DNA of 10,900 nucleotides from the IMG/VR virus record IMGVR_UViG_2579778968_000008; one strand, written 5' to 3'. The stretch's first letter is position 1. Each line of letters begins with the position of its first letter. The notes under the pieces are model-generated. The model searched no databases. It was not told the origin of the DNA and saw only the letters and a program-made list of their open reading frames with translations. Of the stretch, positions 4,945 to 10,900 are shown one piece after another. The position numbers and the translations under genes are program-made. The stretch comes from a virus (taxonomy: Duplodnaviria > Heunggongvirae > Uroviricota > Caudoviricetes).

Positions 4945-5116
4945 TTACTTCCGTGTTGCAGGATGCGCCACCGCCCGGAGCGGCGAATTAGTCGAGTTCG
5001 TTTATATCGTTGACGCCCGCAGCGCGATCAGCGCCAAAGCTGAGGCGCTAAATCAGGCCAGAAATGAACGCCTTTCCCACATCCAGATTACCCGCGTTCG
5101 TGAGGTGGCGGCATGA
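4937..5116 (+). CDS. hypothetical small protein (about 59 aa)
   Basis: ATG at 4937 overlaps the Icd-like stop (ATGCTTAA); its stop overlaps the next start (ATGA at 5113); first member of a coupled gene chain. Confidence 0.45.
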   Translation: MLNYFRVAGCATARSGELVEFVYIVDARSAISAKAEALNQARNERLSHIQITRVREVAA

Positions 5117-5427
5117 GCATGTATGACGATTTAGTGTCCTGCAAATTTGATGGTTGTACACCTGATGATCTGAACGGAATTGAGAGCTGCGCCAGTGATG
5201 CCGTGGATGATTTAATGCTGGGCGTAAGTGCCATTGGTAGCCTCATGTTCTGGGCGGCTGGTAGCGATGGCTACCCGGAGGAAAGCGCTAAGGCTGATAT
5301 GTACAGATTAGGCGCAATGCTGGGACATATCGGAGAAGTTGCGCGGGCGCTGAACGATAGCGCTGCAAACGCCGCATTCTTGCGCTCAATCAGTGAAAAA
5401 GAAGCCAAAGGGAGGGCGGGCAAATGA
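5113..5427 (+). CDS. hypothetical protein, 104 aa
   Basis: ATGA start/stop overlap on both sides; GC-rich backbone composition. Confidence 0.6.
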   Translation: MSMYDDLVSCKFDGCTPDDLNGIESCASDAVDDLMLGVSAIGSLMFWAAGSDGYPEESAKADMYRLGAMLGHIGEVARALNDSAANAAFLRSISEKEAKGRAGK

Positions 5428-6319: not shown

Positions 6320-6661
6320 ATGATTACTAAAAATTTCCGACTTAATGCGCTGGCGAATAAGTATGCGTCGGCACTGTATAACCACATTACGGCTATCAAT
6401 GGTGGCAATTACTTCATGGTTGACGCGGCAGGCCAGCAAATCCGTGTGGAAATCGTCAATGGAGTAAAAGGCGTTCGCAGCCTGATCGATAGCTACACAC
6501 TGGCAGCCATGAAAGTGTCCTACCCGCAGTGGGAAACCGTGGGGATCGAGATTCTTGATCGTTGCGTCACTAATGACGGATTGACTGACGTAGGGCGTGA
6601 GATATGGCAAAGCATGGTTAAAGACATGGGCGCGACCGTGGCAGGGGGCAACCATGCGTAA
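6320..6661 (+). CDS. hypothetical protein, 113 aa
   Basis: GAGGGGG RBS 5-6 nt upstream of the ATG; stop overlaps the primase start (ATGCGTAA). Confidence 0.6.
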   Translation: MITKNFRLNALANKYASALYNHITAINGGNYFMVDAAGQQIRVEIVNGVKGVRSLIDSYTLAAMKVSYPQWETVGIEILDRCVTNDGLTDVGREIWQSMVKDMGATVAGGNHA

Positions 6662-9095
6662 TATCGACATTATCCGCGAAGTGACCAGTGCCGCCGCCGG
6701 GCGCTGGCCTTATGTGCTGGCTGGATTGTCTATCGACGTGCCTGATTCATCGCGCCGCCATTCTCCATGCCCTGCATGTGGTGGAAAAGACCGTTTCAGA
6801 TTCGACGACAACGGGCGCGGTAGCTTTATCTGCAATCAGTGTGGCGCTGGTGACGGTTTAGACCTGATTAAGAAGGTGAACAACTGCGACACCACAGAAG
6901 CGGCAAGGCTTGCCGCTGATGTGCTGGGTATTGATTACCGGGCAGCGGAAACCGACCCGGTGGCAGCGAGCCATAGAAGAGAGCAACTGGAAGCTGACCG
7001 CCAGCAGCGTGAGCAGGAGCGCCAGAAACAGGCAGCAGAGGATGCAGAGCAGCGAAGGGCTACGTTTGCCCGTCTGTATGCCGGAATGCGCCAGAGTGCC
7101 ACACAGGGAGAATCTGATTACCTGCAATCAAAAGGGCTGACCGGGTTTAACTATCCGGTTATGCCGGATGGTTCGTTATTGCTGGAGCTGGTGGACGAAT
7201 CCGGCGCAGTGGCAGCAGCGCAAACCATTACACCGCAGGGAGAGAAGCGACTCCTGACAGGTTCAGCAAAGCGCGGGGCATATCACGCCGTTAACGCACC
7301 GGAACAGCCGCAGGCGGTGATTATTGCCGAGGGGCTGGCAACCACTTTATCAGTCCACCTGATGCGCCCTGACGCGCTGACAGTGTGCGCCATTGATGCG
7401 GGCAACCTGCTACCCGTTGCCGAAGTGATGCGCCGGAAACACCCGCAGTCGCAAATTATCATTGCCGCAGATAACGACCACCAACAGGACGAACAGGCGA
7501 ACACGGGCAAAGATGCCGCAGAGAAAGCCGCCTTATCCGTGGCTGGCTGGGTGGCGCTGCCGCCGACAGACTACAAAGCCGACTGGGACGACTACCGCCA
7601 GCAAAACGGGCTGGAAGTCGCTACGGCTGCGTTTAACGATTCGATGTACCAGATTCAGGGGGAAGCCGTGAAACCACAACTACAGGCCATTGCGGGCGGT
7701 AAATCCCGCCGTAAAGCCGAAGTCGGAGATATTGCACAAATGGCAGCCAGCCAGAAAGCGCGGTTGCTTTCATCTCGATGGGATATGTTGGCGGTTAACC
7801 CTGATAGTGGCACTGTTTACTGCTACGAATCTGGCGTATGGGAGAAGCTACCAGACAGTGAATTAGAAAGGGTTATGGTGGCAATTTTCGACGAGCACGA
7901 AGCCCACTACACCGAAAAGGGGATTAAATCGGTTGTCGCAACCATGAAGCTGCAAATACCGGTAATTGGTGAGCGGAGCGGGGATTTGATTGGTTTTGAT
8001 AACGGCGTTTATGACCTCGCTACGCAGACGTTTTCCGCCCATTCGCCGGGTAACTGGCTGATGAACCACAATGGGATCACCTACACCCCGCCAGCGCCGG
8101 GGGAAAATATTACCACCAGCGCCCCCAATTTTACCCGTTGGCTGAATCATGCAACGGCTGGCGACCATCATAAGGCCGAGCGTATCAAAGCAGCCTTGTT
8201 TATGGTGCTGGCGAAGCGTCACGACTGGCAGCTATTCATTGAGATAACTGGCGAGGGCGGCAGTGGAAAATCCGTATTCAGCAGCATAGCAACCACGCTG
8301 GCAGGTGAACACAACACCGCCAGCGGTAGCATGATGACGCTGGACACCGCACGGGGACGGGCGCAGTTCGTAGGAAAAAGCCTGATTATTATGCCTGACC
8401 AGACCCGCTATGTTGGAGAGGGTGCGGGGATTAAAGCCATTACGGGCGGCGATCCGGTAGAGATTGATGGGAAATATGAAAAGCAGTTCACAACCGTGAT
8501 AAATGCCGTTGTTATGGCAACCAATAACGAGCCGATGACATTCACGGAGCGAAACGGGGGCATTGCCCGCCGCCGCGTGATATTCCCGTTTAATAACCCG
8601 GTATCAGACGCAGACAAAGACCCGGATTTAACCGCAAAAATCAGGCGAGAAATCCCGGTGATTATCCGCCACCTGCTAACCACCTTTGCCGACCAGAACA
8701 AAGCAAAGGCACTATTACTAGAGCAGCGCGATTCGCAGGAGGCGCTAGAGGTTAAACGCGGCACGGATCCGGTTGTCGATATGTGTGCGGCGCTTTTTTT
8801 CATGAACGAACCCAAAGGCATGATGATGGGCGGAGGTACATGGGCAGGCCAGCCAGAGCCGAGGACGTATCTTTATCATCTTTATCTGGCGTTTATGGAG
8901 TATCACGGTTTGGGTAAACCGCTTTCCGTCAATAAGTTTTCACGCGCCATAAAATCAGCAGCAAAAGAGTACCGAGCCAGCTACCTGACGAGAAGCATTA
9001 ACGGCAGAGCGCAAACCAACGTTGGCTATAACGAGAAGGCTGATGAGTTCATGCCACGCGCTTACGGTGTGGAGAGCGGGCAGAGTGATGATTGA
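6654..9095 (+). CDS. primase-helicase (P4 alpha-like: zinc-ribbon primase N-terminus, Toprim-like region, P-loop NTPase C-terminus)
   Basis: Cys-rich zinc-binding motif CPACGGKDRFRFDDNGRGSFICNQCG near the N-terminus; acidic Toprim-like segment (IIIAADNDHQQDEQANTGKDAAEKA); Walker A GEGGSGKS followed by hydrophobic-Asp Walker B-like segments. I prefer the ATG at 6654 (MRNIDIIREV) over the track start at 6597, because it overlaps the upstream stop in a coupling arrangement. Confidence 0.9.
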   Translation: MRNIDIIREVTSAAAGRWPYVLAGLSIDVPDSSRRHSPCPACGGKDRFRFDDNGRGSFICNQCGAGDGLDLIKKVNNCDTTEAARLAADVLGIDYRAAETDPVAASHRREQLEADRQQREQERQKQAAEDAEQRRATFARLYAGMRQSATQGESDYLQSKGLTGFNYPVMPDGSLLLELVDESGAVAAAQTITPQGEKRLLTGSAKRGAYHAVNAPEQPQAVIIAEGLATTLSVHLMRPDALTVCAIDAGNLLPVAEVMRRKHPQSQIIIAADNDHQQDEQANTGKDAAEKAALSVAGWVALPPTDYKADWDDYRQQNGLEVATAAFNDSMYQIQGEAVKPQLQAIAGGKSRRKAEVGDIAQMAASQKARLLSSRWDMLAVNPDSGTVYCYESGVWEKLPDSELERVMVAIFDEHEAHYTEKGIKSVVATMKLQIPVIGERSGDLIGFDNGVYDLATQTFSAHSPGNWLMNHNGITYTPPAPGENITTSAPNFTRWLNHATAGDHHKAERIKAALFMVLAKRHDWQLFIEITGEGGSGKSVFSSIATTLAGEHNTASGSMMTLDTARGRAQFVGKSLIIMPDQTRYVGEGAGIKAITGGDPVEIDGKYEKQFTTVINAVVMATNNEPMTFTERNGGIARRRVIFPFNNPVSDADKDPDLTAKIRREIPVIIRHLLTTFADQNKAKALLLEQRDSQEALEVKRGTDPVVDMCAALFFMNEPKGMMMGGGTWAGQPEPRTYLYHLYLAFMEYHGLGKPLSVNKFSRAIKSAAKEYRASYLTRSINGRAQTNVGYNEKADEFMPRAYGVESGQSDD

Positions 9096-9113
9096 AACTT
9101 TTACGGCGGCACT

Positions 9114-9360
9114 TATCCCTACTGCCCTACTAAAAACGAGACGAGGCCAGACGTAGCAAGGCTTTAAACTAGGTAGGGATATATATTTTTATCCCTACTT
9201 ATCCCTACATATCCCTACCAAATAAAACAGGCAGTAAAATGCCGTTGAAGTGATTTAGTAGGGATAAGTAGGGTTATGTAGGGCAACAAAATTGAATGCC
9301 TACCAGTCTGAAAGCCTTGCCATTCGTGGCATGAGCCAGTTAGTAGGGATTGGTAGGGAT
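9114..9360 (+). repeat. iteron array, putative origin of replication (about 11 copies of the 6-8 bp core GTAGGG(AT) / (AT)CCCTAC)
   Basis: CCCTAC-orientation copies at 9118, 9125, 9193, 9203, 9213; GTAGGG-orientation copies at 9173, 9258, 9268, 9278, 9343, 9353. Three clusters have exact 10-bp phasing (TTATCCCTAC TTATCCCTAC ATATCCCTAC; GTAGGGATAA GTAGGGTTAT GTAGGGCAAC). An inverted pair flanks the AT tract ATATATATTTTT (9181-9190). Located directly 3' of the primase gene. Confidence 0.65.
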
Positions 9361-9433
9361 ATTACACCCCCAAAAAGATTCTATGGGGGGGTGAGCTTAA
9401 AACGAAACTTGTCAAAACTTGACACACAGAACG

Positions 9434-9466
9434 ATGCCACCAGCTACTGAGCGGCGGCATTTTTTT
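9434..9466 (+). terminator. candidate rho-independent terminator
   Basis: Imperfect GC-rich stem (ATGCC.CC ... GG.GGCAT) followed by a run of 7 T at 9460-9466; separates the primase/origin region from the downstream two-gene operon. Confidence 0.4.
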
Positions 9467-9485
9467 GTGCTATTTGTTTCATATT

Positions 9486-9560
9486 TTGCAATTACGGTGA
9501 TAAATATTGCTATTTGTGAAACTATAATAACTGTTGTTTTATACAGTTCTAAGGGGCGTT
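9486..9560 (+). promoter_or_regulatory. AT-rich putative promoter region for the downstream operon
   Basis: Perfect TATAAT hexamer at 9524-9529 in a very AT-rich stretch; TTGCAA at 9486-9491 is a possible but mis-spaced -35; AAGGGG RBS at 9551-9556 before the ATG at 9561. Confidence 0.3.
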
Positions 9561-9734
9561 ATGGCTATTTCAGTAAAGCCGGTATTGATAAGTGAGAAGC
9601 AAATGGAAGCGATAAAGAAAATTCAGGAGGAGCAGCGTAAAAAATCAGAGGTAGGAGTTGCGCCAACGATCCACGAAATTGCTCGGGGATTAATGGATAA
9701 GGCGCTGGCCTCACTGGCAAGCGAGGGCGCGTAA
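9561..9734 (+). CDS. small protein (57 aa), possible ribbon-helix-helix DNA-binding protein
   Basis: ATG at 9561 with AAGGGG RBS (the track's longer 9534 start would need TTG). N-terminus VKPVLISEKQMEAIKKI has the beta-strand-then-helix pattern of RHH (CopG/Arc-like) proteins; stop overlaps the start of the next gene (TAATG). Confidence 0.5.
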   Translation: MAISVKPVLISEKQMEAIKKIQEEQRKKSEVGVAPTIHEIARGLMDKALASLASEGA

Positions 9735-10405
9735 TGGGCGCCATTCACCAGATATATGAGCATGAAATGTTCTATAACTGGATAGGTGATGGTAAACGAT
9801 GTGTAGCATTCCACGAAGCGGGACATGCAGTAGCTGCATGGCTTATTCGCTTAGATATACAGGTTATCGCCGTTATGGATGAATACGGTTACGTTGCTGG
9901 CGAACATGTACATGAGGCCAAGTGTTTGGGTGTTGTTAAACACAGCATAATTCACAGCCACGATCTAGGGCGTTTGCGGGATAGTAAATCTGGTGTAGTT
10001 GGGCAGAATGGTAAAGTTATCCCTTTCATACGTTACTATGCGGATGGTATAAAGCGCGATGCAAAAAAGGCCGCTTTTGTATCCCTCGCCGGACCAGTAA
10101 GCGAAGCCCTTTACGAAAACAACGATATTTTCAACAAAAAGTATTCGCTACCTCATCGCTATGACATGGCTAACGTAAATGACATGCTCGATTTAATCTG
10201 CGCTACAGATAAGCAAATTAACAGGGAGTTAATGCTTTCTAAACTCGTTGAAAAGACCAAAGCCCTCATGGCTCAATACTGGTATGAAGTAGAAAAAATA
10301 GCGCATTTGCTTGAACGGGATAGCATTGTGAATGGTCGAAATGTTAGCTCGTTAATTGGCATCAACGTCATAGACCGGGCAACGCCATTTTTGCTGGTGG
10401 AATAA
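9734..10405 (+). CDS. standalone HExxH zinc metallopeptidase (FtsH-like HEAGHA motif, no ATPase domain)
   Basis: 223 aa; motif VAFHEAGHAVAAW at residues 24-36 closely resembles the FtsH/M41 active-site context (AYHEAGHA); no Walker A/B motifs; AT-richer than the backbone; translationally coupled to the small upstream gene. Confidence 0.65.
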   Translation: MGAIHQIYEHEMFYNWIGDGKRCVAFHEAGHAVAAWLIRLDIQVIAVMDEYGYVAGEHVHEAKCLGVVKHSIIHSHDLGRLRDSKSGVVGQNGKVIPFIRYYADGIKRDAKKAAFVSLAGPVSEALYENNDIFNKKYSLPHRYDMANVNDMLDLICATDKQINRELMLSKLVEKTKALMAQYWYEVEKIAHLLERDSIVNGRNVSSLIGINVIDRATPFLLVE

Positions 10406-10618: not shown

Positions 10619-10900
10619 ATGGTAAACGACAGTAAAGCCGAGGATCTGGAAGCAAAAGGGCTGTACCGACGCGCCGCAGCGCGATGGATGGAAGTCATGC
10701 TGTTATGCACCGAGGACGATGATCGGGAATGGATAAAGCGCCGCCGTGAAACGTGTCTGGAGAACGTGAAGCGCCCGCCCGTGAAGGTTGAGGACTTTGG
10801 CGACCTACATAAAGCTGTTACCGAAACGCAACACCGCATGGGGATAGCGCAACCGAACGGTAACGCCTTCCGGTTAAATGGCGGCAAGAGGCAAAGGTAG
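10619..10900 (+). CDS. PerC-like small transcriptional regulator (93 aa)
   Basis: LEAKGLYRRAAARWMEVML resembles the conserved core I recall for PerC-family regulators; GGGGGAG RBS about 8 nt upstream of the ATG; TATAAT hexamer at 10548-10553; stop codon at the window edge. Confidence 0.5.
   Translation: MVNDSKAEDLEAKGLYRRAAARWMEVMLLCTEDDDREWIKRRRETCLENVKRPPVKVEDFGDLHKAVTETQHRMGIAQPNGNAFRLNGGKRQR

Follow-up and report, generated by a model that had tools for sequence, protein, structure and literature searches.

A phased, mirror-symmetric iteron array 3′ of a P4 alpha-like primase gene as the probable replication origin of a phage-satellite island in Escherichia coli

A P4-family primase gene in the DNA analysed here (a stretch of 10,900 nt, hereafter the window) is followed directly by a dense cluster of short repeats in both orientations, at a position where RefSeq annotates nothing, which raises the question of what the cluster does and which protein reads it. 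We consider it probable (roughly 0.85), on comparative evidence drawn from DNA and protein sequence, that replication of a 12.9-kb phage-satellite island, inserted between yicC and yicG of E. coli and similar in kind to EcCIMP1 and EcCICFT073, starts from positions 9115–9360 as its origin. An earlier note on this DNA had already proposed an iteron origin served by the adjacent primase-helicase, and those parts of that proposal that can be checked computationally (the repeats, the homology to P4 alpha, the site layout and the co-variation of repeat and initiator) all find support below.

The sequence of the window recurs without change in E. coli strain 64.1, where it belongs to the island between yicC and yicG. 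Island genes up to PerC are co-directional and run in the order integrase (61–1320), AlpA-type regulator (2406–2609), AntA antirepressor, DUF4222 protein, Ash/Icd-like protein, several small ORFs, P4-family primase, repeat array, two small genes and PerC (10619–10900), with integrase, AlpA and PerC all in the direction of the primase. This gene order matches that of EcCIMP1, a phage-inducible chromosomal island (PICI) that is excised and transferred with helper phage Kapi1 (PMC11773190), and islands at the yicC site have already been listed as PICIs (PMC6092414 supplement). As in other PICIs, integrase, AlpA and pri-rep genes are co-directional, the element falls in the ~10–15 kb range and phage structural and lysis genes are absent. 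No Pfam match to Psu or Ogr/Delta was obtained among 20 ORFs scanned (window plus the rest of the island), and no homologues of P4 psu and delta, which together with sid are the capsid-size and helper-control genes of P4-like satellites, were found in the island. Because of the EcCIMP1 backbone, the listing of yicC-site islands as PICIs and the lack of detected Psu/Delta homologues, the element is classified from its gene content as a PICI-type rather than a P4-type satellite. None of the att sites that have been published for islands at yicC turned up as a flanking repeat (ATCGAGTAAG is present once); the only repeat found to flank the island is the 10-bp GTGTACACAA (L001 positions 5281 and 17821; ends inspected over 5100–5400 and 17300–18250). 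A 223-aa protein encoded after the array (9734–10405) is named “peptidase M41 family protein” in some RefSeq records on the basis of weak matches; our own searches gave only weak, sub-threshold matches to the peptidase M41 motif.

Repeat counts set the array sharply apart from its surroundings. Eight exact copies of the 8-mer ATCCCTAC are present in the 10.9-kb window, all of them inside 9115–9360, and a search allowing at most one mismatch returned 17 matches in the window against 5.7 expected, a total reached in 0 of 200 shuffles. Similarly, the 6-mer core CCCTAC is found 13 times in the window (3.1 expected), and 11 of these copies lie within 9117–9358. In a 29-kb segment of the source chromosome that surrounds the island, 8 of 8 exact 8-mers are in the array (246 bp), where 0.32 would be expected. 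In total, the array holds 12 sites for the word GTAGGG(AT), comprising 11 exact CCCTAC cores and one degenerate copy. These sites, the flanking elements and the adjacent gene are as follows:

6654–9095, + strand: primase-helicase, P4 alpha homologue, 813 aa (Pfam, P4 alpha and PDB matches; RefSeq)
8763–9041, + strand: predicted winged-helix origin-binding domain (aa 704–796 of 813; match to PDB 1KA8)
9115–9130, + strand: left outer iteron pair, ATCCCTAC and TGCCCTAC, starts 9115 and 9123, 8 bp apart
9173–9180, − strand: single inverted iteron, GTAGGGAT on the + strand, from the repeat search
9179–9192, unstranded: 14-bp A/T-only tract ATATATATTTTTAT, candidate first strand-opening site
9191–9218, + strand: three iterons ATCCCTAC at exact 10-bp spacing, starts 9191, 9201 and 9211
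9219–9257, unstranded: central spacer, 33% G+C, with a small GGCA/TGCC hairpin, centre of symmetry
9258–9285, − strand: three opposite iterons, GTAGGGAT, GTAGGGTT and GTAGGGCA, at 10-bp spacing, starts 9258, 9268 and 9278
9296–9303, + strand: degenerate iteron ATGCCTAC, mirror partner of the copy at 9173
9308–9333, unstranded: non-iteron motif CTGAAAGCC..GCCATT..TGGCATG, common to the window, the EcCICFT073 origin and CCCTAC-type relatives
9343–9360, − strand: right outer iteron pair, GTAGGGAT twice, 10 bp apart, starts 9343 and 9353
9365–9393, + strand: C5/G7 hairpin (RNA fold −13.4 kcal/mol), right edge of the origin module

This map agrees with the earlier description in each respect: about eleven copies in both orientations had been counted, three clusters were said to be spaced by exactly 10 bp (9191/9201/9211, 9258/9268/9278 and 9343/9353; the leftmost pair is 8 bp apart), an AT-only tract was placed between an inverted pair (9179–9192, between 9173(−) and 9191(+)), and the array was put immediately 3′ of the primase gene, whose stop codon at 9093–9095 precedes the first repeat by 20 bp. 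The inverted site at 9173 is conserved in all relatives that have this layout, and the site equivalent to the degenerate 9296 copy has a full core in L002, L010 and L061. Small ORFs in the array region (e.g., 9292–9450) were considered as genes and rejected, since RefSeq annotates nothing there and conservation is concentrated at the repeat cores with no reading-frame pattern.

The gene that ends beside the array encodes a multidomain replication protein. RefSeq places its start at ATG 6654 (813 aa), and the open frame extends upstream to GTG 6597 (832 aa). Pfam matches (Zn_Ribbon_Prim, Toprim_3, D5_N, DUF5906 and Pox_D5, the last indicating a Pox_D5-type C-terminus) give the domain order zinc ribbon, Toprim primase, D5_N, SF3-type helicase and C-terminal winged helix. 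Full-length comparison aligns 98% of the protein with P4 alpha at 38.5% identity, and no phage record provides a better full-length relative; the helicase part matches PDB 7OLA, a helicase-primase structure of the SaPI Rep family, and aa 723–815 (numbered in the 832-aa frame) match the origin-binding domain of P4 alpha (PDB 1KA8, E = 3.7e-8). The proposal that an initiator of the P4 alpha kind lies next to the repeats is therefore well founded, both in its full-length homology and in its C-terminus, and we infer that the winged-helix domain encoded at 8763–9041 is the reader of the repeats. No Rep_3-type domain was detected in the ORFs scanned (window plus the rest of the island), the array-adjacent gene being the 813-aa primase-helicase itself. 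Residues 1–351 (zinc ribbon and Toprim, 6597–7707) form a separate recombination module: other E. coli islands carry it, at 88–97% identity, fused with no fewer than three unrelated halves for helicase and origin-binding functions.

Within the array, a candidate for the first strand opening is the tract at 9179–9192. No longer run of pure A/T exists in the window, and only one 20-mer of the window is less stable than the 20-mer in which the tract sits (−18.9 kcal/mol, against a mean of −27.2 with sd 2.7). Equivalents of the tract in CCCTAC-type relatives remain A/T-only while their sequence has changed, and GTTCAC-type relatives have their A/T-rich stretch in a different interval, the one from the first pair to the single inverted copy. 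As the tract is short (14 bp) and the A/T-rich stretch of GTTCAC-type relatives is located differently, 9179–9192 is put forward only as a candidate melting site. A feature that the earlier note does not mention is the near mirror symmetry of the array about 9238, with arms 9156–9223 and 9253–9320 that are 75% complementary, and the sequence of the central spacer (9219–9257) is unconserved among relatives. The non-iteron motif at 9308–9333 has a partial inverted copy, GCAAGGCTTT, at 9156–9165, and the two could be a second protein-binding site. C-run/G-run hairpins like the one at 9365–9393 also close the arrays of relatives, and the module common to related islands ends at ~9400, beyond which the DNA belongs to a different mosaic module. 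That neighbouring module is separate from the array; it includes a direct repeat, AAACTTGTCA/AAACTTGACA, at 9405–9424 and, after this repeat, a hairpin that resembles a terminator and has a T7 run (~9433–9466), and it is common to islands with other replication modules and to ~555 E. coli genomes.

Such symmetry, together with a very stable predicted single-stranded fold of 9150–9325 (−40.1 kcal/mol, z = −8.6), might be taken to indicate that the array is a hairpin or cruciform signal, or that it is a host-factor site (DnaA, IHF) or a packaging or recombination site, given that TTATCCCTA matches the DnaA box TTATCCACA at 7 of 9 positions. The symmetry, however, arises mostly from the inverted iterons themselves, around a central spacer that is not conserved. 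A scan of 9096–9400 for DnaA boxes, IHF and Fis-like sites and GATC gave no match, and no DnaA box of the form TTWTNCACA was found anywhere in the window; moreover, the site of a host protein would not be expected to switch its word between islands within one species, as this one does. A lambda-type cosN was likewise not found in the island, and an Rfam search returned matches at chance level only. We therefore give this group of explanations the least weight of those considered and return to the reading of the array as an origin.

To describe how the repeats vary with their initiator, the C-terminal half of the primase was used in a scan with one genome per species, which recovered 68 loci, and ~20 related loci (Enterobacterales, Aeromonas and Tolumonas) were examined site by site. 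Where the arrays are clear, the layout is kept and the word changes at all sites together, as listed here by word:

CCCTAC: Kluyvera, Atlantibacter, Buttiauxella, Shimwellia and Aeromonas allosaccharophila
CTCTAC/TCTAC: Rosenbergiella, Tolumonas and Aeromonas molluscorum
ATCTAC: Yersinia pekkanenii
TGTTCACC (the P4 word): Tatumella, Erwinia, Rahnella and Serratia
GTTCAT: Providencia
GTTCAG: other Yersinia

The P4 word is used by the E. coli island EcCIRM13514 as well as by the Tatumella locus L013, and in loci of Xenorhabdus and Proteus the layout is retained although the cores are degenerate. No array follows the gene in two of the loci with inspected downstream DNA (L015 and L063); these two loci and the degenerate Xenorhabdus cores weigh against the origin reading. 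In CCCTAC-type arrays, core columns are 81–90% identical versus 53–59% for columns elsewhere (Fisher P-values from 5e-4 to 1.5e-8), a difference by which, on alignment evidence, the array cores are judged to be under selection. A contig labelled Chryseobacterium sp. 18061 (L011) carries an enterobacterial-type primase (84% identity) with a CCCTAC array, and its label probably reflects assembly contamination or mislabelling. A literature search for the 8-mer words matched only unrelated primer sequences.

The part of the protein with which the word changes can be narrowed by comparing domains. Primases of E. coli that have the same N-terminal 351 aa (88–97% identity) and another C-terminal half are accompanied by the iterons TGAACCAAC, GAGACAACA or CCTGTACC/CCTATACC, and a grouping of the last 135 residues of the proteins yields two clades, one with xxCTAC words and one with GTTCAx words. 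The helicase of the Tatumella primase is 82% identical to that of the window and its winged helix 35%, and its word is GTTCAC; an Aeromonas primase (L050) with a helicase at 58% and a winged helix at 62% identity has kept CCCTAC. As far as these alignments go, it is the winged-helix domain that the repeat word tracks, and neither the helicase nor the primase domain. A residue code within the winged helix that would tell CCCTAC from TCTAC readers was sought and rejected, because a single column separates the two groups and its residues are chemically inconsistent. The earlier note had suggested comparing iteron cores with primases across related islands and had suggested a distinct initiator specificity for this core; the comparison does reveal co-variation of word and initiator, but it maps to the C-terminal winged-helix domain and not to the primase as a whole. 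A near-identical primase lacking the repeats, which the note had named as evidence against its reading, was not what the genomes contained: the 3′ end of this primase occurs in ~77 of 5,426 complete E. coli genomes searched, and in 76 of those 77 the array adjoins it. The sole non-contiguous case is E. coli ET650, where the match breaks off at ~9173 and continues at another location. This pattern points to an insertion within the proposed origin, and the array looks interrupted rather than absent.

This co-variation also bears on whether the repeats might instead be operators for an island regulator (e.g., AlpA or a partner of the AntA-type antirepressor) that governs either transcription running on out of the primase operon or initiation of the operon downstream, with no part in replication. 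Their location between two co-oriented gene blocks, with no terminator found after the primase gene, would suit such a function. Against this, changes of the word go with the C-terminal domain of the primase, whereas the regulatory genes upstream are unchanged or almost unchanged; the HTH protein WP_019841534.1, for instance, is identical in L001 and L005 despite their different iterons. A simple promoter and terminator scan of 8900–9900 found nothing, including no promoter-like site, and the downstream module recombines independently of the array. An operator function is thus very improbable, if slightly less so than a host-factor or hairpin site. For an origin, the co-variation strongly supports the predicted specificity of the adjacent initiator for the array word.

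The only indirect support for autonomous replication comes from a K. pneumoniae record. The circular “plasmid” NZ_CP033626.1 (22.9 kb) has the same island backbone, with integrase and a tape-measure gene; owing to a 4,347-bp terminal duplication at 100% identity it is over-assembled, with a true circle of ~18.2 kb. Its replication-related annotations are limited to a primase of this type (C-terminal half 85% identical) and an SSB, and its array keeps the layout seen in the window, the word being [CG]TCTAC. The record is consistent with an episomal, self-replicating form of the island backbone.

The most direct functional reference for the array is the origin of EcCICFT073. In PICIs of Gram-negative bacteria, the origin is located directly 3′ of the initiator gene and consists of two iteron sets around an A/T-rich region; for EcCICFT073, a pri-ori segment kept a plasmid at the restrictive temperature, and deletion of rep or ori abolished or reduced maintenance (PMC6092414). 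Both properties recur in the window, where the stop codon at 9093–9095 is followed by the first iteron at 9115 and where opposed sets, 9173(−) and 9191–9218(+), flank the 14-bp tract, with a further opposed pair, 9191–9218(+) and 9258–9285(−), around the central spacer of 33% G+C. Site offsets, counted from the stop codon, compare as follows:

Window: 22+ 30+ 78− 98+ 108+ 118+ 163− 173− 183− 203+ 248− 258−
EcCICFT073 (word TCTAC): 17+ 26+ 73− 94+ 105+ 114+ 146− 157− 178+ 225− 234−
EcCIRM13514 (word GTTCAC): 15+ 25+ 68− 88+ 100+ 108+ 143− 152− 163− 184+ 228−
P4 ori: 23+ 33+ 76− 98+ 109+ 119+

Thus EcCICFT073 and the window each have, directly 3′ of pri-rep, 11–12 sites with matching order, orientation and spacing (two forward, one reverse, T/A tract, three forward, spacer, two or three reverse, one forward, two reverse, then a C/G hairpin), and both contain the non-iteron motif CTGAAAGCC..GCCATT..TGG; the left outer pair is present at the same two sites in EcCICFT073, EcCIRM13514 and P4 ori. 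Because site order, orientation and spacing are shared along with this motif, the array matches an experimentally tested origin site by site, with a different word (CCCTAC in the window, TCTACC in EcCICFT073). The helicase and winged-helix parts of the two initiators are 55% identical, the winged helix alone 46%. They differ in the N-terminal primase part, which is of another type in EcCICFT073 (584 aa versus 813 aa), and EcCICFT073 has another island backbone and insertion site, capsid genes and a lambda-type cos site.

Comparison with P4 (GenBank X51522, reverse complement = L076; PDB 1KA8) raises the only serious alternative. P4 alpha has the same domain order over its full length and the same type of origin-binding domain, and the crr locus annotated in GenBank lies 46 bp 3′ of alpha and spans 300 bp, within which the 8-bp type-1 repeat occurs ten times, some copies forward and others inverted; a distance of 4.5 kb separates it from P4 ori. 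The crr locus is required in cis for P4 replication, but synthesis starts elsewhere. The location of an array 3′ of an alpha-like gene is accordingly no proof that synthesis begins there, and the array of the window might be a crr-like cis-acting helper or copy-number control region at which the initiator binds, with synthesis elsewhere, or at which initiator molecules are titrated or paired. Additional iteron clusters of plasmids act in this manner, as does P4 crr, which occupies exactly the same position relative to its initiator gene, and in the related EcCIMP1 a distance of 8.4 kb separates two inverted arrays of iterons. However, the left half of the array has the layout of P4 ori and not that of crr alone. 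In EcCICFT073, an array of the same layout, as the sole array on a plasmid, supports Pri-Rep-dependent maintenance (PMC6092414). Furthermore, since the exact 8-mer occurs nowhere else in the 29 kb around the island, there is no second array that could act as the origin. A helper or copy-control function is hence unlikely, though it deserves more weight than the operator and host-factor explanations, and we retain the array as the probable origin. In EcCIMP1 (E. coli MP1, L077), the two inverted arrays have six TGAACCAAC iterons each (2736–2856 and 11276–11396, ~8.4 kb apart), one being 3′ of a DUF927-type primase and the other near perC, an arrangement that recalls P4 ori and crr.

The layouts of the two P4 loci can themselves be placed on the single array of the window. 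P4 ori (two forward, one reverse, three forward; L076 2212–2315) corresponds to the left half of the array, and each 120-bp unit of P4 crr (L076 7035–7334) resembles the right half and ends with a similar motif, AAAACTTTT. P4 departs from the window in having two separate repeat loci, both needed in cis, where the island has one symmetric 246-bp array, in its terminator between alpha and crr (none was found between the primase gene and the array) and in its type I word, TGTTCACC, which is distinct from the ATCCCTAC core here, as the earlier note had stated. Its parallel with alpha and crr is likewise borne out, but the closest known relative, by virtue of the same site layout, is the EcCICFT073 origin. 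It is possible, though on balance doubtful, that the single mirror array is the undivided form of the split P4 origin and that swaps of a winged helix of ~100 residues retarget a fixed 12-site layout. If this were so, the series of retargeted winged helices (CCCTAC, TCTAC, TGTTCACC and others) would make co-resident satellites mutually compatible, orthogonal replicons.

Taken together, these comparisons suggest how replication of the island might proceed. After induction, the island would produce its alpha-like protein, whose C-terminal winged helix would bind the 12 GTAGGG(AT) sites in their mirror-image sets. Crowding of protein on both sides would open the DNA, most likely at the A/T tract 9179–9192 or, alternatively, in the A/T-rich central spacer, whereupon the SF3-type helicase part would load itself as hexamers facing outward. 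The N-terminal Toprim primase would then make primers, and host DNA polymerase III would copy the island in both directions without DnaA, DnaB or DnaG. P4 itself replicates with host DNA polymerase III and without DnaA, DnaB or DnaG. The melting site, the geometry of helicase loading and the start site in this scheme are inferred by homology with P4 alpha, the EcCICFT073 Pri-Rep and the SaPI Reps.

What the locus adds is modest: an unannotated island origin with a word, GTAGGG(AT), unlike those of its characterised relatives; a comparative series in which one fixed layout appears to be retargeted by winged-helix swaps; and the apparent resemblance of P4 ori and crr to two halves of a single symmetric array. 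In practical terms, it provides a precise annotation of the proposed origin for a satellite island present in ~77 of 5,426 complete E. coli genomes, and the comparative set (one 12-site layout with at least six words, linked to the winged helix) offers material on how initiators read DNA. It may also help to explain how several satellites share a cell without competing for one initiator, and it supplies candidate orthogonal, DnaA-independent replicons.

Among more distant systems, the SaPI Reps have a C-terminal winged helix, load themselves, and act at iterons directly after rep with an A/T-rich centre (PMC9371898). The window resembles the SaPI origins in the placement of iterons right after rep, in the A/T-rich region between opposed sets and in the SF3-type helicase initiator, and differs from them in that SaPI iterons are 5–6 nt long in another layout, the protein similarity is limited to the helicase core and the hosts are Gram-positive. 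Iteron plasmids of the pPS10, R6K, F and RK2 type likewise have direct repeats phased by the helical turn and an A/T-rich opening region, and their repeats, bound by the replicon’s own initiator, define replicon specificity. Their initiators, however, are small dimeric Rep proteins of the WH1-WH2 type, which bring in DnaA, DnaB and DnaG of the host, whereas the putative initiator of the window carries its own helicase and primase and its array has no DnaA box. By analogy, the core origins of SV40 and papillomaviruses also place short words in mirror-image sets beside an A/T tract, and their initiators, large T antigen and E1, are SF3 helicases with an origin-binding domain that assemble as two hexamers; these proteins have unrelated origin-binding domains, eukaryotic hosts and no primase domain. 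The kind of origin proposed here is thus already known from PICIs, from P4 ori and crr and from the SaPIs, and the array leaves current understanding unchanged while extending the results obtained with EcCICFT073, P4 and the SaPIs.
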